Below are positions 24,801 to 37,068 of a stretch of 64,000 nucleotides of DNA, in pieces (position 1 is the first letter of the stretch; each line of letters opens with the position of its first letter). This DNA comes from an uncultured Verrucomicrobiae bacterium. Lineage in GTDB: Bacteria; Verrucomicrobiota; Verrucomicrobiia; Chthoniobacterales; JAFAMB01. Under the pieces are notes generated by a model. It was given only the letters and a program-made list of their open reading frames with translations. It did no database searches and was not told the origin of the DNA. A program made the position numbers and the translations under genes. The stretch spans positions 1,030,996 through 1,094,995 of the forward strand of contig CAVZKG010000001.1 in NCBI GenBank assembly GCA_963775805.1. Direction: 5' to 3'.

Positions 24801-25013
24801 AATTGCAAGTTGTTTATTCAGCGAAATTTTCGCGCTAAATGATGCAATAAGCTCAAACACGACTTGACGCAGTATGGTGATTTTGTGTGAGATTGAGCCC
24901 GGCATAAGCAACCAGGGTCGGTATTGTTGACATGTCGGAAGTGGTCGCTGAAAACAACGGAGTGATTGACAGAACAGACTACTGCAGCACGAGCCTCAAA
25001 AATTTGCCTACTG

Positions 25014-26075
25014 ATGAATAGCTCGAACCGACCTACAAGAGATATCGCTAAGTTGCACCGGGCCCTTCTGCTTCTGGTCGCGATTTTGCCCGGTATCGCA
25101 AAGGCGCAGGACTCCGAGCAGGTCCGATCGGTCCAGAACATATTTGCTCCGGTCGGAGTTCCGGCTGAAACCCTCAATGCAACGGCAACACTGGTGTTGC
25201 TGATCTGTCTAGTCATTTTCATCGTGGTAGGTGGACTCATGTTTTATGCGGTTGTCCGATACCGCCGCAGGCCGGACGATGACGGAAGCGAGCCGCCGCA
25301 AGTTTACGGAAGCACCGCAATCGAGTTGGCATGGACGGTTCCGCCAATCCTGATCGTCGTGGTACTGGCGTTGGCCACGGCCCGGACAGTAGGGGAAATT
25401 CAGAATCCGAAATTAAACGGCGACCCGGTAGAGGTCAGAATAATCGGCCACCGTTTCTGGTGGGAAGTAAGCTATCCTAAATACAACATCGTCACAGCGA
25501 ACGAAATCCATGTGCCTGTGAGTTACCTGAGTGCGCAGCGTCCGATAGCGTTGACGATGGGTTCCGCGGACGTCGTTCACGGATTCTGGGTCCCGGAGCT
25601 GAACGGAAAAGAATGGCTAGTGCCGGGGCGTGACAATAAATGGTGGATTCAACCGAGCTCTCTTGGAATCTATCTCGGCAACTGCACTGTTCTATGCGGA
25701 CCACAGCATGCGAACATGCTGCTGCGCATCGTTGTCGAGTCTCCGGACGACTTCGATAAATGGGTCGAAAGGGAACAGCGGCCTCCAAACGAGGACCCGG
25801 CAGTGAACACCGGTCGAACCGCGTTTGCAACGAACTCCTGCGGAAGTTGCCACACGATTGACGGTACCAAATCGAACGGAACGTTCGGCCCGAACCTTAC
25901 ACATTTTATGAGCCGTCAGACGCTGGGCGCAGGTGTGGCTCCAAATGACGATACGAACCTGAAAATCTGGCTCCACGACCCACAAGACCTGAAGCCGGGA
26001 TGTTTGATGCCGGATATGAAGCTTAGCTCGGAGCAGGTTGACGAAATCTTGGCCTACCTTAAAACGCTGAACTAA
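25014..26075 (+). CDS. ctaC: Cytochrome c oxidase subunit II with fused C-terminal cytochrome c domain (caa3-type)
   Basis: CuA site CTVLCGPQHANM with upstream His, followed by haem c motif CGSCH. The ATG at 25014 is preferred over the TTG at 24966. Confidence 0.9.
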   Translation: MNSSNRPTRDIAKLHRALLLLVAILPGIAKAQDSEQVRSVQNIFAPVGVPAETLNATATLVLLICLVIFIVVGGLMFYAVVRYRRRPDDDGSEPPQVYGSTAIELAWTVPPILIVVVLALATARTVGEIQNPKLNGDPVEVRIIGHRFWWEVSYPKYNIVTANEIHVPVSYLSAQRPIALTMGSADVVHGFWVPELNGKEWLVPGRDNKWWIQPSSLGIYLGNCTVLCGPQHANMLLRIVVESPDDFDKWVEREQRPPNEDPAVNTGRTAFATNSCGSCHTIDGTKSNGTFGPNLTHFMSRQTLGAGVAPNDDTNLKIWLHDPQDLKPGCLMPDMKLSSEQVDEILAYLKTLN

Positions 26076-26082
26076 TTAAATT

Positions 26083-27780
26083 ATGGCAGATGGAACGATT
26101 ATTGCCGAGTCAGGTACCGAGACGTTGCCGGCCAAGCCCGGAGAAGAGAAAGGAACTCTCACCGGCTGGGTGCAGGATTTGGTCTACACGGTCGACCACA
26201 AGAAGCTGGGGATGCTCTATGTCGGCACCGGCCTCTTCTTTTTAATTTGCGGCGGGATCATAGCACTCATCATTCGTGCTCAGCTGGCGTTTCCGAACGG
26301 GAAAGTGACCACGCCCGAGGAATTCAATGCCATGATCACCATGCATGGAACGGTGATGATCTTCTGGGTGGCAATGCCAATCATCTTCGGGATGATTAAC
26401 TATGTGGTACCGCTCATGATCGGAGCCAGGGACATGGCATTTCCGCGACTGAACGCATTTTCGTTCTGGCTAACATTCTTCAGCGGATTCTTTCTATTTT
26501 TCAGTTTCGTCGCCGGTCCCGGTCTTTACGGATTTAGCGGCGCGCCGGATGCAGGATGGTTCGCCATCGCGCCCCTGACCTCCACGGCTTTTTCAAAAGG
26601 CAATAGCATTGACTTCTGGTCCCTGAGCGTGCTCATCAGTGGCGTGGGTAGCATCACGGGCGGCATCAACATCATGGTGACGATTATTTGCTATCGAACC
26701 AAAGGAATGACGCTCCACCGAATGCCGTTATTTGTCTGGTTGGCTCTCGTCACAATGTTTTTGGTCGTCGTGTTTCTTCCCCCTCTTTCCGCCGCCCAGA
26801 TCATGTTGATCCTGCAGCGCTACCTGGGAGCGAAGTTCTTCGAAGCGCAGGCCGGCGGTTCAGCAATTCTCTGGCAGCATTTCTTCTGGATATTCGGTCA
26901 CCCGGAAGTTTACATCCTGGTTTTACCGGCTTTCGCCACGGTTTCGGAGGTAATTCCTGTTTTCTCGAGAAAACCGATCTTTGGCTATCCAATGATGGTT
27001 GCCGCTACGGTTCTCATCGGCTTTATCAGTGCGGGCGTCTGGGCGCACCATATGTTCGCTGTGGGTCTGAATTCGTATGGAGTTACTTTCTTTGCGATGG
27101 CGACATTAGCCATCTCTGTACCAACCGGCATCAAAATCTTTAACTGGCTGGCAACCATGTACGGCGGCAAGATCCGTTTGGAATTGCCGATGGTCTTTTG
27201 CATCGCTTTCCTGTTCCAATTTCTGATTGCCGGGTTGACAGGGGTCATGCTCGGTGTGGCACCGTTTGATTGGCAATTGAACGACTCCTATTTCGTGATC
27301 GCCCATTTCCATTATGTGATCGTAGGCGGAATTCTGTACGGGATCTTTGCATTCCTTTATTACTATTATCCCAAAGCTTTCGGCCGGATGCTCAACAAGA
27401 AACTTGGGTTCTGGCATTTCTGGCTCTTCACGATCGGATTTCATCTGACGTTTGACCCGCAGCATTTTGCAGGGTTCCTGGGTATGCCGCGCCGGATCTA
27501 CACGTATCAACCGGGACGTGGCTGGGAACTTTGGAATCTGATTTCGAGCATCGGAGCGATTTTCCAGGCGCTTGGCGCAATCTGCCTTGTGATTAATCTT
27601 CTCTGGTCGGCACGCAAAGGGGCTATCGCCGGAGACGATCCTTGGGATGCATGGACGCTGGAATGGACTACCACGTCACCGCCGCCGGACTATAACTTTG
27701 AAACGTTGCCGGAGGTTAAGAGCCGTCGTCCGCTTTGGGATTTGAAACACCCCGAGGACCCCGATTGGAAATTCGAGTAG
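26083..27780 (+). CDS. ctaD: Cytochrome c oxidase subunit I
   Basis: 565 aa, 12+ TM, with canonical haem-copper oxidase blocks (WFFGHPEVY-like FWIFGHPEVYILVLP, HHMF, HFHYV). Confidence 0.97.
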   Translation: MADGTIIAESGTETLPAKPGEEKGTLTGWVQDLVYTVDHKKLGMLYVGTGLFFLICGGIIALIIRAQLAFPNGKVTTPEEFNAMITMHGTVMIFWVAMPIIFGMINYVVPLMIGARDMAFPRLNAFSFWLTFFSGFFLFFSFVAGPGLYGFSGAPDAGWFAIAPLTSTAFSKGNSIDFWSLSVLISGVGSITGGINIMVTIICYRTKGMTLHRMPLFVWLALVTMFLVVVFLPPLSAAQIMLILQRYLGAKFFEAQAGGSAILWQHFFWIFGHPEVYILVLPAFATVSEVIPVFSRKPIFGYPMMVAATVLIGFISAGVWAHHMFAVGLNSYGVTFFAMATLAISVPTGIKIFNWLATMYGGKIRLELPMVFCIAFLFQFLIAGLTGVMLGVAPFDWQLNDSYFVIAHFHYVIVGGILYGIFAFLYYYYPKAFGRMLNKKLGFWHFWLFTIGFHLTFDPQHFAGFLGMPRRIYTYQPGRGWELWNLISSIGAIFQALGAICLVINLLWSARKGAIAGDDPWDAWTLEWTTTSPPPDYNFETLPEVKSRRPLWDLKHPEDPDWKFE

Positions 27781-27837: not shown

Positions 27838-28434
27838 GTGAGTTCACAAACCTTAGCCAGCACTGAATCAGATTGGAAGCTCCCTTCTCCGCGAGTCGTG
27901 GGAATGATCCTTGTCATTCTCACGGAGACAGCGCTCTTCACGATTTTCGTGGTGGCGTATCTCTACTATATCGGGAAAAGCCTATCCGGCCCATATCCGC
28001 ACGAAGTACTCGAACTCCCAATTCTGGGCACCATTTTGCTACTGTCAAGCAGCGGAACGATTGTGCTTGCAGAGCAAAATCTGCATAAAGGCGAGAACAG
28101 CTTATTCAATCTCTGGTGGTTGATCACTGCGCTGCTCGGGTTGGGATTTCTGGTCTACACCGGTCTCGAGTGGCACAAGCTGATCTACGAAGATCATCTC
28201 ACGATCAGCACGAACTTGTTTGGCTCGACGTTTTATTCGCTCGTGGGACTACACGCCAGCCACGTCGTAGTCGGACTTATTCTGATCCTGATGATTCTGA
28301 TCCTGAATATCACCGGGAAAATTAAACCGTATCATCACCAGCATATCATAATGATTTCCTGGTATTGGCACTTCGTCGATGCGGTCTGGATCATCGTTTT
28401 CACCGTCGTCTACGTCGTTGGTATCAAATCTTAA
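27838..28434 (+). CDS. ctaE: Cytochrome c oxidase subunit III
   Basis: 198 aa, 5 TM, subunit III-like (TGLEWHK, FYSLVGLHASHV, YWHFVD). GTG start. Confidence 0.85.
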   Translation: MSSQTLASTESDWKLPSPRVVGMILVILTETALFTIFVVAYLYYIGKSLSGPYPHEVLELPILGTILLLSSSGTIVLAEQNLHKGENSLFNLWWLITALLGLGFLVYTGLEWHKLIYEDHLTISTNLFGSTFYSLVGLHASHVVVGLILILMILILNITGKIKPYHHQHIIMISWYWHFVDAVWIIVFTVVYVVGIKS

Positions 28435-28437
28435 GCC

Positions 28438-29283
28438 ATGAGCTCACAAGAACACGGACATTCTTCAGAAGAGGGCGTCGAGTTACCGACGCCGACGGCG
28501 TGGCCGTTTATGTGCGCCTTCGGCATCACTTTGCTCGGAGTCGGTCTCGTGACCACCCTCCTGGTGACGTTGGTCGGGTTTATCATTGCGCTGATTTCTG
28601 CTGTCGGCTGGTTCCGGAGCGTATTTCCGAAGCCGCAGCATTTGCTGATTCCTTTGGCACCGGCAGATCACCGTCCGGCAGCGATCAAGGTCTCCAAAAG
28701 TCACATCAGTAATCTGCGGATTGGCCAATCAAGCCATCGTGTCCGCATCCCAGTCGAAGTGCATCGCTATTCCTCCGGCATTCTTGGAGGGTTGGCCGGC
28801 GGCGCCGCGATGGCGGTCCTGGCCATGGGCTACGGCTTGGTCGTTGAGCATAGCATCTGGTATCCAATCAACCTGATGGCGGCGGCTGGTGTGCCGGCTT
28901 TAACGAACGCGAGCTTAGCCACGTTAAGAGAATTCAGTGCAGCGGGACTGACGGTGGCAATTTTGAGTCACCTTACCTTCTCGATCTTGGTTGGTTTGCT
29001 CTACACGGTTCTATTGCCCATGTTGCCCGCGAAATTGGAATGGTTGTTCGGCGGTATTATCACCCCGCTGATGTGGACCGGACTGATTTACCCGACATTT
29101 AACTTGATCAACCCCGCGCTTGCCGCCCGCGTCGACTGGGGATGGTTTGTGATTTGCCAGGTCGCCTTCGGGCTGGTGGGCGGTTTTGTCGTATTCAAGT
29201 CGCAGAAAGTGGAAACGATGCAGAGTTGGTCGCTCGGCCAGAGAATGGGACTGCACGCGATGGGCGAAGATAAACCGGAATAA
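28438..29283 (+). CDS. Membrane protein of unknown function, embedded between the oxidase and bc-complex genes
   Basis: 281 aa with about 6-7 TM helices. The N-terminus (LPTPTAWPF...) resembles small oxidase accessory subunits. The remainder is unrecognised. Spacing to ctaE is tight (4 nt). Confidence 0.6.
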   Translation: MSSQEHGHSSEEGVELPTPTAWPFMCAFGITLLGVGLVTTLLVTLVGFIIALISAVGWFRSVFPKPQHLLIPLAPADHRPAAIKVSKSHISNLRIGQSSHRVRIPVEVHRYSSGILGGLAGGAAMAVLAMGYGLVVEHSIWYPINLMAAAGVPALTNASLATLREFSAAGLTVAILSHLTFSILVGLLYTVLLPMLPAKLEWLFGGIITPLMWTGLIYPTFNLINPALAARVDWGWFVICQVAFGLVGGFVVFKSQKVETMQSWSLGQRMGLHAMGEDKPE

Positions 29284-29304: not shown

Positions 29305-30057
29305 ATGCTGTTACGCCCATTAAACTCGATTCTGGTCATTTGCGGCCTCGCCTTGGTAAGCGGTTGCGATCGTCTGCCAGGCAAACCGACAGAAGCAGAC
29401 CGGTGGAAGCCACCGCAGGATGTCAAAGATTTTGCGGAGCTGTTTGATACGAACTGCCGAGCTTGTCACAGCAATGGGAAGACCCTCGGAGCGTCAATGC
29501 CAATGAGTAATCCCACCTACCTCGCGATCGTACCGAAAGAGGTGGTACGCAAAGTGATCACTACAGGGATTGCAGGCACCGCGATGCCCGGTTTTTCAGC
29601 ACAGGCCGGCGGATTACTGACCGAAGAGCAAATCGGGATCCTCGCGGACGGGATCTACACGTGGGCAAAGGGTCATGAAGTCCCGACGGATAATCTTCCA
29701 CCCTACAGCGCGGCGCTTGGCGATGCCAACCATGGGAAAGAGGTCTTTACGGCGGCTTGCGCAGGTTGCCACGGTGCTGAGGGCGAGGGCGTGACCGGCA
29801 AAGCCGGGGCGGTCGCTGATTCGGCCTATTTGAGTCTGGTAAGCGATCAATATTTACGAACTGTTGTCATCGCCGGTCGGCCTGATTTTGGAATGCCAGG
29901 ATTTCGCGACTACGTGGCCGGGAAGCCGCTGACACCTGAAGAGATTTCCGACGTTGTGGCCTGGCTGGCATCGCACCGAGAGGGAGCAGCCCCAGGAGAG
30001 CCCGCAAAAACCGCTGATACCAGCTCCGGAACGCAACCTTCAACCTCAAACCAGTAA
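29305..30057 (+). CDS. Di-haem cytochrome c lipoprotein
   Basis: Lipobox LVSGC is present, with two CxxCH motifs (CRACH, CAGCH), each followed by a distal Met region. The C-terminal tail is low-complexity. Confidence 0.8.
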   Translation: MLLRPLNSILVICGLALVSGCDRLPGKPTEADRWKPPQDVKDFAELFDTNCRACHSNGKTLGASMPMSNPTYLAIVPKEVVRKVITTGIAGTAMPGFSAQAGGLLTEEQIGILADGIYTWAKGHEVPTDNLPPYSAALGDANHGKEVFTAACAGCHGAEGEGVTGKAGAVADSAYLSLVSDQYLRTVVIAGRPDFGMPGFRDYVAGKPLTPEEISDVVAWLASHREGAAPGEPAKTADTSSGTQPSTSNQ

Positions 30058-30599
30058 TGACACCGAGCGAACCTGAAAACGACCATCCAATAAGTCCGGA
30101 GGCGAAGAGTTACTCCACGCGGCGTGATTTCTTGCTCCAGATCGGTGTAGTAATCAACGCCGTTGCGGCGTTTATGATCGGGATACCCCTCGTGGGATTT
30201 GTCCTCTCAAGCCTCATCAGGAGTACTCCACGCGTTTGGTTTTCCTTGGGGCCGGTGTCAAAATTTCCCGAAGGTCAAATGCGCCTTGTCACTTTTGAAA
30301 ACCCTTATCATTCGCAAGCGGATGGACAGACCGCACGATTGACCTGCTGGGTTCGACGAATCCAAGGGGACCAATTCAAGGTTTTTGCAGCAAACTGCAC
30401 CCATCTTGGATGCCCTGTACGCTGGTTTGAGGAGTCGCAATTGTTTTTGTGCCCCTGTCACGGCGGCGCTTTCTACGCGGACGGCGGACGCGCTGCGGGT
30501 CCGCCCCCGAGGGGTCTCTACGTCTACGAACATAAGGTCCAGAACGGCGAGCTGCAGATCGACGCGGGTGTTCTGCCAACATTGGCAAGCCCCTCCTAA
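30057..30599 (+). CDS. Rieske [2Fe-2S] subunit of a cytochrome bc-type complex
   Basis: N-terminal TM/TAT-like segment and cluster boxes CTHLGCPV and CPCHGG. The start overlaps the upstream stop (TAATG). Confidence 0.9.
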   Translation: MTPSEPENDHPISPEAKSYSTRRDFLLQIGVVINAVAAFMIGIPLVGFVLSSLIRSTPRVWFSLGPVSKFPEGQMRLVTFENPYHSQADGQTARLTCWVRRIQGDQFKVFAANCTHLGCPVRWFEESQLFLCPCHGGAFYADGGRAAGPPPRGLYVYEHKVQNGELQIDAGVLPTLASPS

Positions 30600-30604
30600 A
30601 TCGT

Positions 30605-32128
30605 ATGAGCGCAAAGGAGAAACGGATCATTAAAGCAGCGACGAATGTGGCCATGTGGGTGGAGGACCGGCTGCATCTGGTAAAGATCTGGAAAGCAACG
30701 GGCGGTCATCCGATTCCAAGGAGCAGTGCGAGCTGGTTCTATGTCTTTGGGAGCATGACCCTGCTCTGCTTTACGATCCAGATTCTCACCGGGATTCTGC
30801 TCGCGATGGTTTACATCCCGTCAGCGAATGAAGCCTATAACAGTCTGCTGATCCTGAATTATCAGCGAGAACTCGGGTGGTTTCTGCGGGCCATGCACTA
30901 CTGGGGTTCGAATTGCATGGTGATTGTCATGGCTTTGCACATGACGCAGGTGTTTCTTTGGGGTGCGTACAAGCATCCGAGAGAGCTCACCTGGATCTCC
31001 GGTGTGGTCCTTTTGCTTCTCACGCTGGCGTTATCCTTTACCGGCCAGGTCATGCGATTCGATTCGGATGCTTATTGGGGAATTGGCATCGGCGCCGCGG
31101 TTGCCGGGCGCATACCGATTATCGGCGCTCAAATGGTAAATCTCATTTTAGGGGGGCCAATCATTGGGAGCGAAACGTTGTCGCGATTCTTCGCTCTCCA
31201 CGTTTTTGTGTTGCCCGGAGCGGTCCTGGCCCTGGTCAGCTTGCATTTACGTCTCGTTCTTTTAAAGGGGATAAACGAATACCCGAAACCGGGGGTTCAA
31301 GTTCGCAGGGAAACCTACGCCAAGGATTACGAAGAGCTTGTTCACAAAGATGGTATGCCGTTCATGCCGGATGGCATTGGGAAGGATATCGTCGCCAATG
31401 GATTGCTTTTGCTGTTGATCGTCGCGCTTGCGCTTTTTGTCGGGCCGAAAGGGCCGGCGACTCCGGCGGATCCAGCTCAAGTAATTTCGGAAGCTAAACC
31501 GGATTATCCATTTCTCTGGTTACTCTCCGCTGCAGCTCTCCTGCCGAGTGGCTCAGAGGTCATCCTCTTCTTCGTCTTTCCGACCATTGCGTTCATTCTA
31601 TTGTTCGGGCTCCCTTTTTTCTCGAACCAGGGTGAGAAACATTTCAGCCGGCGCCCGGTCGCTGTCGTCGTGGTTCTGTTAACCTACCTCACGATCGGCA
31701 TGTTGACGTACGCGGGCCTAACCGGTCCATGGTCCCCGCATATGGAGGCATGGAGCAGCGCTCCAATGGGACCGGAATTTGTGAAAGGGCGTTCGCCGCT
31801 CGAGTTACAGGGTTCGCTGGTGCTTCAGAGCAAACAGTGTCGGAATTGCCACGTGATCGGCGATGAAGGTGGTCACCGCGGACCGGATCTTTCGGGTGTT
31901 GGTGCGCGCATGGATGCACCCGAACTGGTTCGTCAAGTCATCCAGGGAGGTGGCAACATGCCCGCCTACGGCAACAACTTGTCGCCGCAGGAGGTGAAAG
32001 CATTGGTTGCCTATCTCGTCTCCCTCCGCCCTGCGCATACCATCCCTGCGCAAAACCCAGCAAATCTTCCCGGCAAAGAGAATGCGCCGTCCAGCGCGTC
32101 TGCCGCACATTCTCAGACGGGAAGCTAG
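30605..32128 (+). CDS. Cytochrome b (b6-like N-domain plus subunit IV-like C-domain) fused to a C-terminal mono-haem cytochrome c
   Basis: Four candidate haem-ligand His residues in helices B and D (RAMHYW, ALHMTQ, FALHVF, SLHLRL). The subunit IV-like region has KPDYPFLW in place of PEWY. The C-terminus has CRNCH ... MP. Confidence 0.9.
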   Translation: MSAKEKRIIKAATNVAMWVEDRLHLVKIWKATGGHPIPRSSASWFYVFGSMTLLCFTIQILTGILLAMVYIPSANEAYNSLLILNYQRELGWFLRAMHYWGSNCMVIVMALHMTQVFLWGAYKHPRELTWISGVVLLLLTLALSFTGQVMRFDSDAYWGIGIGAAVAGRIPIIGAQMVNLILGGPIIGSETLSRFFALHVFVLPGAVLALVSLHLRLVLLKGINEYPKPGVQVRRETYAKDYEELVHKDGMPFMPDGIGKDIVANGLLLLLIVALALFVGPKGPATPADPAQVISEAKPDYPFLWLLSAAALLPSGSEVILFFVFPTIAFILLFGLPFFSNQGEKHFSRRPVAVVVVLLTYLTIGMLTYAGLTGPWSPHMEAWSSAPMGPEFVKGRSPLELQGSLVLQSKQCRNCHVIGDEGGHRGPDLSGVGARMDAPELVRQVIQGGGNMPAYGNNLSPQEVKALVAYLVSLRPAHTIPAQNPANLPGKENAPSSASAAHSQTGS

Positions 32129-32217: not shown

Positions 32218-34542
32218 ATGGAAGACCCGGCGAATGCGGTTTTTAGCTCTTGGGCTATACCGATCGGGCCGGTTTTTGCGATCCTGTTTCTGTTTGCCGT
32301 TTATATCCGCGGTTGGATCGGTCTCCAGTTCCGTACCCCGCGCAGATTTCCGTTGTGGCGTCTCCTTGCATTTGCGGGAGGATTGGGCGCGATCTTTCTG
32401 GCGATCGCATCTCCCTTGGATGCATTCGGCAGCCTGCTGCTGCAGGTCCACATGATCCAGCATCTGCTTCTGATGATGGTTGCTCCGCCATTGATCCTCG
32501 CGGGAGCGCCGTACCTGCCACTGCTTTCAGGACTTCCTCGCCTATTCACACGCGAAGTGATCGGACCTTTCCTGATTTGGCCTCCCCTCAAGCGACTCGG
32601 ACATTTCTTGCTCCATCCGGTCGTGTCGTGGATCGCATTCACTTCTTCCAACGTTCTCTGGCATCTGCCGTACTTTTATGAACTCGCGCTGAATTTTCCA
32701 GCCTGGCACGAATTTGAACATTTCTGCTTTCTGTTCACGGGAATCCTCTTCTGGTGGCATCTCATTCAGCCGTGGCCAAGCCGCCCGGTTTGGCCACGCT
32801 GGGCAATGATCCCATATCTTGTTCTCGCCGATTTGCAAAACACCGGGCTCGCAGCGTTTCTGACTTTTTGCGATAGGGTTCTTTATCCAACCTATCAATC
32901 CGCCCCGCGATTGTGGCATTCAAATCCATTAGATGATCAGGTGATCGCCGGAACGATCATGTGGGTGCCCGGCTCCATCGTTTTTCTGGTTCCTGCTGCA
33001 GTCATTGCGCTTCAAGCTCTTTCGCCACGACTCAGCAGGCACGCTTCAGCGGCGGTCGGTTCTACAACATCTGCGGCCAATCCCGATAACGGCCCCGCAG
33101 TTATGCTTCGGAGGCTGGGCCTTGCGCCTCGGGCGGCTCATCAGCCATTCGATTTATTCCGGATTCCAGTTATCGGAGCCGTGCTCCGTTCCAACCGGTT
33201 CCGGCGCGGTATGCAAGTGGTCATGCTGATCCTCGCGATCGCAGTTCTGCTCGACGGATTTTTGGGACCGCAAATGAGCCCGATGAACCTCGCCGGCGTG
33301 CTCCCCTGGACACATTGGCGCGGACTGACGGTCGTGGCCTTGCTCCTCGCAGGTAATTTGTTTTGCATGATCTGCCCGTTCACTCTCGTCCGCGATTTCG
33401 GGCGGCGCTGGTTGCCCGCAAAATGGGTCTGGCCGGCATTTCTAAGAAACAAGTGGCTGGCTGCAGCACTCGTCGGCCTCTACCTCTGGGCATATGAAGC
33501 GTTCAGTCTTTGGAATAGCCCTTGGCTGACTGCATGGATCATTTTGCTTTATTTTCTGTCAGCCTTTTTGATCGACGGATTTTTCCAGGGAGGCAGTTTT
33601 TGCAAATACGTTTGCCCGATTGGACAATTTCATTTCGTTCAGTCGTTGATTTCTCCACTCGAAGTCAAAGTGCATACACCGGATGTCTGCCAGACGTGCA
33701 GGACTCATGATTGCATCCGGGGAAACCTCGAACGACGCGGATGCGAACTGAAGCTCTTTCAACCTAGAAAAAAGGGAAATATGGACTGCACGTTCTGCAT
33801 GGATTGTGTCCATGCATGCCCGCACGATAACGTCGGCTTGATCGCCGTTCTTCCTGGTAAACAGCTGTGGAACGGCGAACAGCGTTCTTCAATCGGATTA
33901 TTTAAAAATCGATTCGATCTTGCCGTGCTTATCCTTGTCTTGGTCTTTGGCGCTTTGGCGAATGCTGCAGGAATGGTCGCGCCCGTCACCGCTCTCTTCG
34001 ATCGAGCTCGTCTCCTCTTCGGACTCGATCGACCGATCGTGATTGCCTTGTTCCTGCTGTCCGGGGTTCTTCTTGTTCCTGGCACAGCCGTCTGGGTCGC
34101 TGCAGTTGTGAGCCGATATTTTGGTAAAGTCGCTGCTTCCACAAAATCATTCGTTTCCGATTTCACGATGACCCTCGCGCCGCTTGGTTTCGCGATGTGG
34201 CTGGCACATCTGGTGTTCCATCTTTTCACCGGGTCGCACACGCCGATTCCGGTGGCACAGCGGATCGCTGTGGATCTTCACCTCGCTCTGTTCGGAAAAC
34301 CGAACTGGGCGATCGCTTCCTGGGCTTTTCCTCAGCTGCTCGATTTCGAGATTCTCTTTCTCGACCTCGGGCTGCTACTCTCGCTCTATGCGGGCTGGAA
34401 AGTCGCGGAGCGATATAACAAATCCGTCAAACGTTGTTTTCTTACTTTTTTGCCATGGGCCGTGATTTACGTTCTATTCTTCCTGGCGGCAATCTGGATC
34501 ATTTTCCAACCGATGGATATGCGCGGAACCATGGTTTCCTGA
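32218..34542 (+). CDS. Fusion protein: CtaG-type cytochrome oxidase assembly factor (N) plus CcoG/NapH-like polyferredoxin membrane domain (C)
   Basis: The N-terminal ~270 aa carry caa3_CtaG signatures (VHMIQHLLLMMVAPPLILAG, HEFEHFCFLFTGILFWW). The C-terminal half has CMICPF, FCKYVCPIGQF and CTFCMDCVHACP Fe-S motifs within TM segments. Confidence 0.8.
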   Translation: MEDPANAVFSSWAIPIGPVFAILFLFAVYIRGWIGLQFRTPRRFPLWRLLAFAGGLGAIFLAIASPLDAFGSLLLQVHMIQHLLLMMVAPPLILAGAPYLPLLSGLPRLFTREVIGPFLIWPPLKRLGHFLLHPVVSWIAFTSSNVLWHLPYFYELALNFPAWHEFEHFCFLFTGILFWWHLIQPWPSRPVWPRWAMIPYLVLADLQNTGLAAFLTFCDRVLYPTYQSAPRLWHSNPLDDQVIAGTIMWVPGSIVFLVPAAVIALQALSPRLSRHASAAVGSTTSAANPDNGPAVMLRRLGLAPRAAHQPFDLFRIPVIGAVLRSNRFRRGMQVVMLILAIAVLLDGFLGPQMSPMNLAGVLPWTHWRGLTVVALLLAGNLFCMICPFTLVRDFGRRWLPAKWVWPAFLRNKWLAAALVGLYLWAYEAFSLWNSPWLTAWIILLYFLSAFLIDGFFQGGSFCKYVCPIGQFHFVQSLISPLEVKVHTPDVCQTCRTHDCIRGNLERRGCELKLFQPRKKGNMDCTFCMDCVHACPHDNVGLIAVLPGKQLWNGEQRSSIGLFKNRFDLAVLILVLVFGALANAAGMVAPVTALFDRARLLFGLDRPIVIALFLLSGVLLVPGTAVWVAAVVSRYFGKVAASTKSFVSDFTMTLAPLGFAMWLAHLVFHLFTGSHTPIPVAQRIAVDLHLALFGKPNWAIASWAFPQLLDFEILFLDLGLLLSLYAGWKVAERYNKSVKRCFLTFLPWAVIYVLFFLAAIWIIFQPMDMRGTMVS

Positions 34543-34564
34543 AGACCTCACAAGCCCAAACGCG

Positions 34565-35119
34565 ATGATTCGGAAACTCCTCCTATTTGGATTAGCTATC
34601 ATTTTGGCGCGTTCGGCATGGGCCGATGGAGGGACAATCCGGTTCCAGGGGGATGCAGGCCCGTTTCACATCACTCTGTTCACCCTGCCTCCCATCCTAA
34701 CTGCCGGTGCAATCGACGCAACGGTGCTCGTCCAGGATCGTACCGGACTCAATCCACTGATCGATGCCGACGTGACTTATGGCCTCGCCGCCGAGTCAGG
34801 GCCTGCAACGCAGACCGCAGCGTGGCTGCCGCCCGCCTGCGCGATGAATCCTCCCCCTTTGCTAACCAGCATTCCTGCGACTCTCGGTCATGGAGAAAAT
34901 CGACTTCTTTACGGGGCCTATCTCCAAATCCCTTACAGCGGTTCCTGGAGAATCAAAATCGACATTCGGCGTGGGACCGAACACGAGACTGTTTCCGCGC
35001 TGCTCGCGGTGCACCCGCCGGCTCCTCCGGTTATGGCCTACTGGCAACTTTTTATCCTCCCGCCTCTGTGTGTCCTCGGATTTATCGTCAATCGATCAGC
35101 GCGCAGCAGGAATCGATGA
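34565..35119 (+). CDS. Secreted/anchored FixH/YtkA-like domain protein
   Basis: It has a signal peptide and a beta-rich domain whose pattern (VLVQDRTG.P..DADV ... HGENRLLYGAY...SGSWRIKIDI) resembles YtkA/FixH Ig-like domains. A C-terminal TM anchor follows. The assignment comes from pattern memory only. Confidence 0.45.
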   Translation: MIRKLLLFGLAIILARSAWADGGTIRFQGDAGPFHITLFTLPPILTAGAIDATVLVQDRTGLNPLIDADVTYGLAAESGPATQTAAWLPPACAMNPPPLLTSIPATLGHGENRLLYGAYLQIPYSGSWRIKIDIRRGTEHETVSALLAVHPPAPPVMAYWQLFILPPLCVLGFIVNRSARSRNR

Positions 35120-35279: not shown

Positions 35280-36599
35280 GTGAAAAATCGCTCCCTCTTA
35301 ATATTCATTCCCCTCCTGCTCTTGGTCCTGGTCTGTGCGGGATGGTTCAGCATCCATTTTTATGTCCACAGCGACGCATTTCGCGAGTGGCTTTCCCGCC
35401 GGGTAAGCCGCTCTATTCACGCAGAGGGCCAATTCGAACCGTTAACCTGGGAAGGTTCCACCTTTCACAGTGCCGGCTTTTCTGCCTTGGGAGGGCCGCG
35501 GAGCAAATTACGGTCACTAAAAGTCACAAACATCTCCGCGCACATCGATTGGAAGCAGCTCCTCAAAGGAGTGTTCGCCATTGATCTGGTGACTGTCGAT
35601 AAACTCGAGGCAGTTGTCGGGAAGAACCATGGGCCGATTCCTCCGCGGCCGCCTCCCGATCATCGGGAGTCGCAACCGGCCTCGCGAGTTCCGATCGAAC
35701 TGCATGTTGAAAAGCTCTACGTCGATTCCGCTAACATCCAATGGCAAACTGCAACCGGTGAGAACGGCGGATTCACCGACACCAAGTTGACCGCCACCAG
35801 CACCGGTCCCAGCGAATGGGATATACAAGCGGTCGGCGGGACAGTGCGACACGCAATCTACCCGCCGCTGCAAGTGGACCATGTTCACGCCTCTGTAAGC
35901 CAGGAGTCCGTTTCCATCGTCGATGCCAAAGCGACTGTTGCCGGCGGGGGTGAGATCACGATCACGGGCAAAATCTCCACGGAAAAACAAGTAAGCGCTC
36001 AATTGAACTTTGATCTTTCCGGTCTGGAACTGAACCCGCTTCTTCCTGCCCAATGGAGAATTGGTGGAAAAATTTCGGGTCATCTCACGTACACCGGTGA
36101 TTTTAATCGGTTTGAACAGGGCGGGATTGCCGGTTCGGTCAAAATCGACGGAGCCTCCTTCGATATGACCAACGTCTTCCCAACCCTGCGTAAACTGGCC
36201 AAATTCGGCGGCTTGAACGATGTCCGAATCGATTCGATCGAAACAAATCTCAAATACAAGGAACAACGATTGGATCTCACCGGTATCCACGCCGGATCAA
36301 AGGACCAAATTCGGGTCGAGGGCTCAGGCAGCCTCACTCCGGACAGGCTCGACGGAGATCTCTTCATTGGGTTGTCCCCGAAAATTCTTGGATGGATTCC
36401 AGGAGCCGAGGAAAAGGTCTTCGTCGATCAACGCGACGGGTTGCGCTGGACAAAGGTGACAATTAGCGGGAGTCCTGCAAAACCCAAAGAAGATCTGACA
36501 CAACGATTGATCTCCGCGTTTAAAGACAAAATGACAAAGGAATTCAACGGAGACACCAAAGACGCGGTCAAATCGCTGCTGGACATGTTCCATCGATAA
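35280..36599 (+). CDS. N-terminally anchored envelope protein, weakly AsmA-like
   Basis: 439 aa with a GTG start, a single N-terminal TM helix and a long beta-rich periplasmic region. No catalytic motifs were recognised. Confidence 0.45.
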   Translation: MKNRSLLIFIPLLLLVLVCAGWFSIHFYVHSDAFREWLSRRVSRSIHAEGQFEPLTWEGSTFHSAGFSALGGPRSKLRSLKVTNISAHIDWKQLLKGVFAIDLVTVDKLEAVVGKNHGPIPPRPPPDHRESQPASRVPIELHVEKLYVDSANIQWQTATGENGGFTDTKLTATSTGPSEWDIQAVGGTVRHAIYPPLQVDHVHASVSQESVSIVDAKATVAGGGEITITGKISTEKQVSAQLNFDLSGLELNPLLPAQWRIGGKISGHLTYTGDFNRFEQGGIAGSVKIDGASFDMTNVFPTLRKLAKFGGLNDVRIDSIETNLKYKEQRLDLTGIHAGSKDQIRVEGSGSLTPDRLDGDLFIGLSPKILGWIPGAEEKVFVDQRDGLRWTKVTISGSPAKPKEDLTQRLISAFKDKMTKEFNGDTKDAVKSLLDMFHR

Positions 36600-36600
36600 T

Positions 36601-37068
36601 ATGGCTTCATTGAATTTTCGCCTGAATGTCGCGGCGATTATTATGAAGCCGGACGGAAAAATCCTGATCGGAGAACGCACCAATGTCGCAAACGCCTGGC
36701 AATTTCCGCAAGGAGGCGTCAAACGTTCCGAAACGCTGCAAGAAGCACTTCGGCGTGAATTGCAGGAAGAAGTCTCATTGGCTCCACGGCATTATCAGGT
36801 GATCGAATCAAAAGGACCTTATCGTTACCTCTTTCCGGCAGGACGTACCAAGGAAGGATTCCACGGCCAGGAACAGATCTATTTCCTAATCCAGTTCACA
36901 GGGAACGACTCTGATCTCAATGCCGAAACAAAAGAACCGGAATTCACGAATATTCGCTGGATTAAACCCTCCGAGTTCAAAATCGATTGGGTGCCAGAGT
37001 TTAAGCAAGCAGTCTATCAGCAGGTATTTGCGGACTTTTTTGGGCTCGATTTGGGTGGATCCGAATAA
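36601..37068 (+). CDS. rppH: NUDIX hydrolase, RNA pyrophosphohydrolase-like
   Basis: 155 aa with Nudix box GGVKRSETLQEALRRELQEEVSL and an RppH-like N-terminus (WQFPQGG). Confidence 0.8.
   Translation: MASLNFRLNVAAIIMKPDGKILIGERTNVANAWQFPQGGVKRSETLQEALRRELQEEVSLAPRHYQVIESKGPYRYLFPAGRTKEGFHGQEQIYFLIQFTGNDSDLNAETKEPEFTNIRWIKPSEFKIDWVPEFKQAVYQQVFADFFGLDLGGSE

Follow-up and report, generated by a model that had tools for sequence, protein, structure and literature searches.

CcoG is a membrane polyferredoxin with two [4Fe-4S] clusters and two copper sites, which reduces Cu(II) and not Fe(III) and supports the insertion of CuB into the cbb3 oxidase; its family homologue in E. coli is YccM (PMC7558416). 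Firmicutes are without a CcoG homologue, and whether Cta assembly requires a membrane cupric reductase of its own, with enzymatic Cu(II) reduction in the membrane before oxidase loading, has been posed as an open question (Barnes et al., 2026, PMC13344008). The copper route to CuA and CuB of A-type oxidases outside Proteobacteria is poorly understood. The function of CtaG is considered intertwined with the formation of the haem a3-CuB centre (PMC8239418), and the role of Caa3_CtaG proteins is not settled (PMC9145763). CtiP of C. glutamicum is the only fusion with a Caa3_CtaG domain listed by Hederstedt (2022), and only CtaG forms with six to nine transmembrane (TM) helices were analysed by Degli Esposti (2021). 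Here we describe, in a 64,000-nucleotide stretch of the genome of an uncultured Verrucomicrobiae bacterium (contig CAVZKG010000001.1; hereafter, the window), a gene that joins a Caa3_CtaG domain to a membrane polyferredoxin, followed directly by a gene for a secreted, membrane-anchored protein of 184 amino acids (aa), p184, both placed after the genes of a caa3-type oxidase and a bc complex. With middling confidence, and judging from sequence, we read the fusion protein and p184 as a dedicated iron-sulfur (Fe-S)-driven unit for copper reduction and hand-off in caa3 oxidase maturation.

The two genes, which are separated by a 22-nt gap and close a compact run of genes on the same strand, contain the following parts (models are from AlphaFold2, AF2):

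32218-34542, forward strand: CtaG::polyferredoxin fusion gene, ATG start, 774 aa (open reading frame (ORF), domain searches and locus survey).
32296-33018, forward strand: Caa3_CtaG domain (PF09678), aa 27-267, with about seven TM helices, N-terminus predicted outside and C-terminus inside (model helices, charge bias).
33019-33207, forward strand: basic linker, aa 268-330, with 10 K/R and low model confidence, predicted to be cytoplasmic (AF2 model, charge bias).
33208-33582, forward strand: NapH/YccM-like four-TM core, aa 331-455, with a conserved, putatively periplasmic loop GPQxxPxNxA..W.HxRG (hhalign to NapH/YccM, TIGR02163, invariant residues).
33364-33378, forward strand: CxxCP (C383, C386, P387) at the cytoplasmic end of a TM helix; invariant, aligning with the CxxxCP of NapH/YccM.
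33601-33618, forward strand: CxxxCP (C462, C466, P467) just past a TM helix; invariant.
33688-33744, forward strand: first Fe-S motif, non-canonical CX2CX4CX9C (C491, C494, C499, C509); invariant, aligned to the first ferredoxin motif of NapH.
33787-33822, forward strand: second Fe-S motif, canonical CX2CX2CX3CP (C524, C527, C530, C534, P535); invariant, with Fer4 family matches.
33922-34539, forward strand: family-specific C-terminal extension of five TM helices, aa 569-774, with no Pfam, NCBIfam or PDB match.
34207-34221, forward strand: HxxxH (H664, H668) with W661, within a TM helix, on its outer half, and fully or almost fully conserved in the two classes of paralogue.
34507-34527, forward strand: C-terminal QPMDMRG (Q764-G770), a Met motif predicted to be periplasmic from the modelled topology; P, M and R invariant.
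34565-35119, forward strand: p184, ATG start, 184 aa (ORF), with a signal peptide (aa 1-20), a sandwich domain (aa 21-152), a TM anchor (about aa 158-176) and a basic tail.

An initial annotation of the window had proposed that CtaG and the polyferredoxin are joined in a single gene, and the distribution of this architecture bears it out. In a search of 5.8 billion proteins, full-length homologues (746-813 aa, 54-100% identity, 99-100% query coverage) numbered more than 120, the named ones being from Verrucomicrobia, Chthoniobacterales or Terrimicrobiaceae. The architecture is already visible in databases through automated labels, such as the 'CtaG/polyferredoxin' and 'CtaG/ferredoxin' given automatically by the JGI (Joint Genome Institute). 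A profile of the C-terminal half was then used to survey one genome per GTDB species, yielding at least 80 loci (counts are lower bounds), to which four metagenome loci were added. CtaG and polyferredoxin share one stop-free frame in 48 of these 84 loci (44/80 species representatives and the four metagenome loci), are separate ORFs in three (L035, L064 and L079 of the survey), and in the remaining 33 the polyferredoxin occurs alone. The fused form is carried by Verrucomicrobiota, by Planctomycetota (including Phycisphaerae, Isosphaeraceae, Gemmataceae and Pirellulales) and by Acidobacteriota (including the named strain Acidobacteriaceae bacterium KBS 96 (L009), Bryobacteraceae and Terriglobia), besides a few oddly labelled metagenome-assembled genomes (MAGs). 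Since same-ORF loci span these three phyla, the fusion is real and old. A frameshift or mis-assembly, which the initial annotation had itself raised as an objection, was rejected as the origin of the fusion, the ORF being intact in all 48 loci and in the full-length homologues.

Three apparent splits (L035, L085 and L086) come from error-prone long-read MAGs, where frameshifts break this gene and also the neighbouring cytochrome b genes; the separation seen in L035 is probably such a frameshift. In the Gemmatimonadaceae MAG (L064, 3693-6810), separate adjacent genes follow each other in the order polyferredoxin, CtaG, p184. In the Chloroflexia MAG (L079, 2189-12003), a coxII-I-III-CtaG series is followed, about 2.8 kb on, by a YtkA-like gene, the polyferredoxin and a p184-like gene. 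In a neighbour-joining tree, fused and standalone polyferredoxins form two clades, with the polyferredoxins of L064 and L079 in the standalone one. All fused forms group together, which points to a probable single origin of the fusion.

The genomic setting of the fused form is equally regular. Among fused loci with enough upstream sequence, 29/31 have coxI or cytochrome b genes upstream, coxII is kept there as well, and metagenome contigs of relatives present the same order, with the caa3-bc genes first and the fusion after them. Moreover, where the sequence reaches far enough downstream, the gene immediately following the polyferredoxin encodes p184 or its counterpart in 39/40 fused loci and in 32/33 standalone ones (71/73 together). 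The fusion, the gene adjacency in L064, the presence of both genes at the same locus in L079 and the exclusive operon context together link the Fe-S module functionally with CtaG and with a single caa3 oxidase, the fusion acting as a 'Rosetta stone' for a functional tie between CtaG and the polyferredoxin.

Regarding the CtaG half, the match to PF09678 reaches 184.9 bits against a cut-off of 27.7 (E=2e-54) and covers profile positions 1-234 of 237. When 50 fusion proteins were aligned, D68, H78, H82, H149, H164, E167, H168, D205, N208, M248 and W249 were invariant in this domain, which agrees with the conserved His residues first reported for it. Taking the AF2 helices together with positive-inside counts, the domain fits seven TM helices, the commonest number in the family, all of these residues up to and including D205 are predicted to fall in the outer leaflet, and the conserved residues of CtaG have likewise been placed on the outer side in published work (PMC8239418). 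The window protein resembles B. subtilis CtaG in its multiple TM helices and its predicted outer-leaflet His and Asp residues, as well as in the position of its gene at the end of a caa3 oxidase cluster (PMC9145763, PMC8239418). Against the Bacillus equivalog model TIGR02737, however, it scores 56.4 bits with a cut-off of 279.35, which makes it a divergent family member and not a Bacillus-type orthologue. Compared with the forms of six to nine TM helices to which published surveys are confined (PMC8239418), the window form adds a C-terminal polyferredoxin and five-TM module of 500 aa. The one other CtaG fusion described, C. glutamicum CtiP, has CopD as its partner and not an Fe-S protein (PMC9145763, PMC13344008).

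The polyferredoxin half carries 12 Cys residues that are invariant in the 50 aligned proteins and grouped in four motifs, both Fe-S motifs being within a soluble region (aa 456-568). The CxxCP motif reported initially was recovered; of two supposed Cx2Cx2Cx3CP clusters, only one is canonical, the other reading CX2CX4CX9C, and there is an additional CxxxCP pair. Single-sequence Pfam searches with the window polyferredoxin gave sub-threshold matches only (Fer4_5 at 18.7-20.5 bits with a cut-off of 22, Fer4_18 and other Fer4 models), and its match to NapH/MauN (TIGR02163; E=7e-11) has about 42 bits where the cut-off is 213. At family level, a scan of 17 members against NCBIfam matched NapH/MauN in 17/17 (best E 1e-11), NosR in 11/17 (best E 5.6e-05) and CcoG in 4/17 (best E 5e-4). 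By hhalign, the family profile aligned with E. coli NapH (96.6% probability, E=6e-10, 159 columns) and with E. coli YccM (97.2% probability, E=3e-11, 162 columns), both alignments spanning only the four-TM and Fe-S core. The CcoG/NapH-like character of the initial annotation is thus upheld for the superfamily by the NapH/MauN and hhalign matches, and its claim that the motifs are the hallmark of CcoG/FixG is not: the module lies as far from NapH as from YccM, scores 13.8 bits against the CcoG model TIGR02745 (cut-off 316.7), and has no C-terminal Ig domain. On these scores we place it as a distinct subfamily of the NapH/YccM/CcoG/NosR superfamily, approximately equidistant from NapH and the CcoG-type proteins and a member of neither group.

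Comparison with individual members of the superfamily shows how far the likeness extends. With CcoG/FixG/RdxA and YccM the module shares Cys pairs located within or beside TM helices and two Fe-S motifs, predicted here to be cytoplasmic. With CcoG it also shares a gene linked to a haem-copper oxidase, an associated periplasmic Ig-like domain and, judging from the alignment, a comparable Cys set, with two Fe-S motifs and two further Cys pairs making up the 12 invariant Cys, although one motif is non-canonical here. In CcoG the Ig-like domain is C-terminal in the same chain, whereas here it would be supplied by the separate p184 gene and the C-terminal 206 aa are five TM helices. The ccoNOQP-ccoGHIS context of CcoG also differs from the caa3/bc context, CtaG fusion and extra five-TM extension of this module, and neither ccoH/I/S nor ccoN was seen in the window locus or in the metagenome contigs examined. 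NapH/MauN and NosR are the best-scoring curated models, and NosR too supports a periplasmic copper enzyme. NapH shares the four-TM core, the Cys-Pro motifs and two ferredoxin motifs (aa 331-568, 159 columns), differing in the first Cys-Pro motif, which is CxxxCP in NapH and CxxCP here. In contrast to NapH, MauN and NosR, the module has no FMN-binding (flavin mononucleotide) domain, no nos context and a unique C-terminal half, and no napG, napA(B) or mau partner genes were found in the window block or in related loci.

This C-terminal part of approximately 200 aa, with its five TM helices, was overlooked in the initial annotation. Several of its residues are conserved throughout the family (N582-A583-x2-M586, W661-x2-H664-x3-H668 and the C-terminal Q-P-M-x-M-R-G). 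An extension profile had no match among PDB sequences, and a Foldseek search of PDB with the full fusion model (mean pLDDT, the AF2 confidence score, 76.7) returned nothing at E<=0.001, the best value being 0.21. An exhaustive HMMER search of 1.84 billion cluster representatives, with the C-terminal 477 aa as query, gave 2016 relatives at E<=1e-3, of which 381 reached E<=1e-30; the fused ones have about 750-830 aa, and the standalone ones, of about 480-500 aa, match end to end. The extension occurs only joined to a polyferredoxin. An independent domain family was considered for it and rejected, as copies of about 250 aa proved to be pieces of frameshifted or truncated genes; since frameshifts in long-read MAGs split the gene, many such 'standalone' copies in protein databases are spurious. 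From the AF2 helices and positive-inside counts we infer a topology with the CtaG N-terminus outside, the linker and the Fe-S region (14 K/R) inside, and the C-terminus outside. Given this topology, the Met and His residues of the extension and the His and Asp residues of CtaG would be periplasmic, and the Cys pairs and Fe-S motifs cytoplasmic.

The partner protein p184 was initially taken for a secreted Ig-like protein with a C-terminal anchor, and its build agrees with this: a Sec-type signal peptide (..SAWA|DGG), a beta-rich domain, a hydrophobic C-terminal helix and an Arg-rich tail, modelled by AF2 (pLDDT 88) as an eight-strand sandwich with a terminal helix. Its supposed FixH/YtkA resemblance fared unevenly. 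The window protein has no Pfam match even at E<=10; among 21 relatives, YtkA (PF13115) is matched weakly by 11 (best E=1.8e-4) and FixH (PF05751) weakly by five, and hhalign relates the p184 family to bona fide YtkA-like lipoproteins with 86.7% probability (E=4e-6, 91 columns). Among PDB folds, p184 matches H. pylori CrdA best (E=2.5e-5, target TM-score 0.78), an entry that also tops the sequence-profile matches, there without significance. CrdA belongs to the CopC family and binds copper (PMC9182242); a complex with a silver ion is among its PDB entries. The common ground with YtkA/CtaK, FixH and the CopC family is an extracytoplasmic, membrane-tethered beta-sandwich beside oxidase assembly genes. 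The differences are that the anchor, a lipid in YtkA and an N-terminal TM helix in FixH/CcoH, is in p184 a TM helix at the C-terminus of a chain whose signal peptide is cleavable, and that neither the MxHxGM ligands of YtkA nor the Met-rich loop of CrdA is present in p184. Therefore the YtkA resemblance stands as a remote one, at family and profile level, and that to FixH falls away (weak matches, other anchoring); p184 appears to be a distant YtkA-like relative, it is not a FixH, and the parallel once drawn with the fixG-fixH gene order is an analogy and not homology of the pair.

Verrucomicrobial p184 proteins have an inserted loop, W-x-P-P-x-C-x-M...H (aa 87-112, window 34823-34900; C92, M94, H109), which reads 'PPCC' in relatives and is absent from planctomycete and acidobacterial homologues. 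From its residues, this loop could be a lineage-specific Cu(I) site.

Standalone polyferredoxins belong to a second, paralogous locus type (type B, the fused loci being type A), in which a conserved four-gene set encodes a membrane protein of 199 aa (mem199), a YtkA-family lipoprotein, the polyferredoxin and a p184-like protein. An example is:

L065, 8976-11988 (Acidobacteriaceae ZG23-2): type B set, found likewise in L033, L036, L038, L043, L045-L047 and others.

No cox genes lie within 7.5 kb of the type B polyferredoxin (0/24 loci), and bc genes are likewise not found there. In at least 28 unfused loci, the pair of polyferredoxin and anchored protein stands beside a canonical YtkA-type Cu(I) lipoprotein (Pfam E=3e-12) with an invariant MxHxGM. 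The protein mem199 is rich in His and Glu, has no Pfam family, carries invariant HWxEH and HHxEH motifs and a C-terminal CxC, and has 68% mean identity across phyla; together with YtkA it takes the place that CtaG has in type A. The p184-like protein of type B shows an invariant His at the predicted mature N-terminus (H-x-G-P-P), which in sequence recalls the CopC histidine brace (described in PMC13344008). Both locus types occur in some MAGs, as with L043 and L069, which come from one bin. Homology between mem199 and CtaG, prompted by similar WHxxEH motifs, was rejected (hhalign, 1.2% probability). About 19 type B loci have genes for very large TPR/FG-GAP/ASPIC-UnbV proteins and for an RnfD/NqrB-family membrane protein within 2-5 kb downstream (e.g., L066, 4063-10294); these FG-GAP/ASPIC-UnbV and RnfD-like neighbours give no clue to a cuproenzyme target.

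The block that precedes the fusion gene in the window consists of:

24966-26075, forward strand: coxII, the gene that opens the block, with a cytochrome c domain at its C-terminus (Pfam COX2_TM, COX2, Cytochrom_C).
26083-27780, forward strand: coxI (CtaD) (Pfam COX1, E=1e-153; TIGR02891, 681 bits, above its cut-off).
27838-28434, forward strand: coxIII (Pfam COX3, E=2e-19).
28438-29283, forward strand: multi-TM protein of 281 aa between coxIII and the dihaem cytochrome c (weak Cyt_c_ox_IV match).
29305-30057, forward strand: dihaem cytochrome c of the bc complex (two Cytochrome_CBB3 stretches, weak QcrC-like match).
30057-30599, forward strand: Rieske iron-sulfur subunit (Pfam Rieske).
30605-32128, forward strand: cytochrome b fused to a C-terminal cytochrome c domain (Pfam Cytochrome_B, Cytochrom_B_N_2, Cytochrome_CBB3).

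The oxidase is of the caa3 type, since its coxII has a C-terminal cytochrome c domain, and the initial description of the fusion as lying in cis, directly after an oxidase/bc block, agrees with the Pfam and NCBIfam scans. The bc complex (29305-32128), placed downstream of the oxidase genes, is of the dihaem-c/cytochrome b-c fusion type, and its gene order fits the 'bc1-A1 caa3 superoperon' described for Acidobacteria and shown there to be expressed (PMC8407424); a search for the terms assembly and ferredoxin in the main text of that paper brought up no assembly gene. The 281-aa protein has no family assignment, its CoxIV-like stretch being weak (aa 20-59); it keeps the same place in every locus that retains this part of the superoperon, and there are two adjacent matches in several Planctomycetota loci. 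After p184 and a 160-nt gap come genes for an AsmA/TamB-like protein of 439 aa and an RppH-type Nudix hydrolase (35280-37068). This pair is syntenic in verrucomicrobial loci (L002, L004-L007, L010), was not detected in loci of other phyla and is probably outside the module. A scan for promoters and terminators gave counts no higher than in shuffled sequence, so the operon boundaries were taken from gene spacing and synteny.

If the fusion protein and p184 do act as a copper unit for the caa3 oxidase, the CtaG domain would be a putative copper-insertion factor that the cytoplasmic linker tethers to the membrane polyferredoxin, which would hold two [4Fe-4S] clusters and two membrane-interface Cys pairs on the cytoplasmic side. 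Electrons would enter the Fe-S chain from a donor, perhaps quinol (as for NapH) or ferredoxin, and Cu(II) would be reduced to Cu(I) at the cytoplasmic Cys pairs, a reaction that biochemical work has demonstrated for CcoG. The Cu(I) would then move outward along the five-TM extension by way of a Met/His set (M586, H664, H668, M766, M768) predicted to lie in or near the periplasmic leaflet, and would arrive at the CtaG site and at the membrane-anchored p184, which together may load CuB and/or CuA of the oxidase. The connection with copper is suggested because the superfamily includes CcoG, a Cu(II) reductase, and because the Fe-S module is recurrently paired with YtkA- and CopC-like extracytoplasmic proteins; it is supported further by the YtkA neighbour in the type B loci and by the CopC-family fold match of p184. 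Architecture, conservation, synteny, homology and folds are observed here; Fe-S occupancy, topology, copper binding and reduction, the direction in which copper moves and the centre that it reaches are inferred.

Several observations weigh against this reading. The module misses both the CcoG and the NapH cut-offs, so that the activity of CcoG is not simply transferable. The Fe-S region is modelled with low confidence by AF2 (pLDDT <50 for aa 492-526), the MxHxGM Cu(I) ligands of YtkA are absent at the aligned positions of p184, and the conserved, predicted mature N-terminus of p184 (D-G-G) is no established copper site. Moreover, there is no evident energy source for an outward movement of Cu(I), and whether B. 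subtilis CtaG serves CuA or CuB is itself not settled (PMC9145763, PMC13344008).

These points leave room for other accounts of the same genes. The Fe-S module might reduce protein thiols in a TlpA/CcdA-like manner, keeping the CuA-site Cys residues of CoxII, or those of a chaperone, reduced for metallation by CtaG and p184. Reduction of disulfides by [4Fe-4S] enzymes has precedents in ferredoxin:thioredoxin reductase and Hdr, and two invariant Cys pairs at the membrane interface beside the [4Fe-4S] motifs would suit such a role, as would the need for reduced cysteines in CuA assembly (PMC13038864). We nevertheless consider thiol reduction unlikely: the predicted place of the two Cys pairs is on the cytoplasmic side, as in NapH, no conserved thioredoxin-fold partner accompanies either locus type, and the YtkA/CopC-like association points to the metal itself. 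Equally improbable, in our judgment, is a unit for copper uptake or homeostasis in the manner of CopC/CopD or YcnJ/YcnI, in which copper would be imported through CtaG and the five-TM part, captured by p184 and reduced on arrival by the Fe-S domain. Such a unit would be consistent with the CopC-like fold and YcnI-like build of p184 (signal peptide, sandwich, C-terminal anchor), with the resemblance of the type B partner's N-terminal His to the CopC histidine brace (PMC13344008) and with the actinobacterial CtaG fused to CopD (PMC9145763, PMC13344008), but the tight coupling of the fused form to one oxidase operon points to a dedicated function and away from a general one. Copper uptake differs from oxidase loading mainly in the direction in which copper moves, which is beyond what sequence settles.

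The remaining accounts place the module in respiration or in haem chemistry. As a NapH-like quinol dehydrogenase or electron-transfer subunit of a bc-caa3 supercomplex, the polyferredoxin would merely be anchored or co-assembled through its fusion to CtaG; its nearest NCBIfam models are NapH/MauN for every member scanned (17/17), its gene is located in a respiratory superoperon, and acidobacterial bc1-caa3 superoperons are transcribed as units (PMC8407424). A donor to haem A synthase, or to haem a3 insertion with CtaG coordinating the haem a3-CuB site, could also be imagined, since haem A synthase requires an electron donor and we know of none identified so far; the link between CtaG and haem a3-CuB formation would be in line with this (PMC8239418). 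Both are weakened because type B has copper-type partners but no oxidase. For the respiratory role, the paralogue loci have a copper chaperone where cox or bc genes might be expected (0/24), a NapG/NapA-type partner is not present and the polyferredoxin is fused to an assembly factor instead of a catalytic subunit, which makes this role distinctly unlikely. For haem a, neither ctaA nor ctaB was detected in any locus examined and the type B paralogue pairs with copper-type proteins with no oxidase nearby, and we regard this account as very improbable indeed.

Returning to the copper unit, a broader and more doubtful proposal, which we offer only tentatively, is that the polyferredoxin with its five-TM extension and the anchored sandwich protein may constitute a widespread, hitherto unrecognised and ATP-independent copper relay, in which electron input through the cytoplasmic Fe-S clusters would be coupled to the delivery of Cu(I) on the periplasmic side. 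Two paralogous forms would exist, one linked to CtaG and serving A-type caa3 oxidases, where it would replace a route of the CcoA/CcoG/CcoI type, and another with YtkA and mem199.

As the initial annotation had supposed, the fusion appears to be uncharacterised. Literature searches for CtaG with polyferredoxin retrieved only unrelated Shewanella work, those for caa3_CtaG with 4Fe-4S found nothing, and those for CtaG with NapH gave none relevant among the 10 best-ranked of 260 papers, judged by title and abstract. Nor is the fusion described in the CtaG reviews and surveys (Hederstedt, 2022; Degli Esposti, 2021). What is new is the architecture, together with a polyferredoxin subfamily that has a conserved partner and a unique five-TM extension, and not a categorically new system; the analysis also defines the second, unfused locus type.

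In brief, a natural fusion of CtaG with a member of the CcoG/NapH superfamily, accompanied by a copper-chaperone-like partner, is a genomic argument that both activities cooperate, and it provides a concrete protein for tests. The fusion is carried by three phyla that abound in soil and water (Verrucomicrobiota, Acidobacteriota and Planctomycetota), for which the bc-caa3 superoperon is a main respiratory route (PMC8407424). If true, the copper relay reading would be the first mechanistic handle on the function of Caa3_CtaG.

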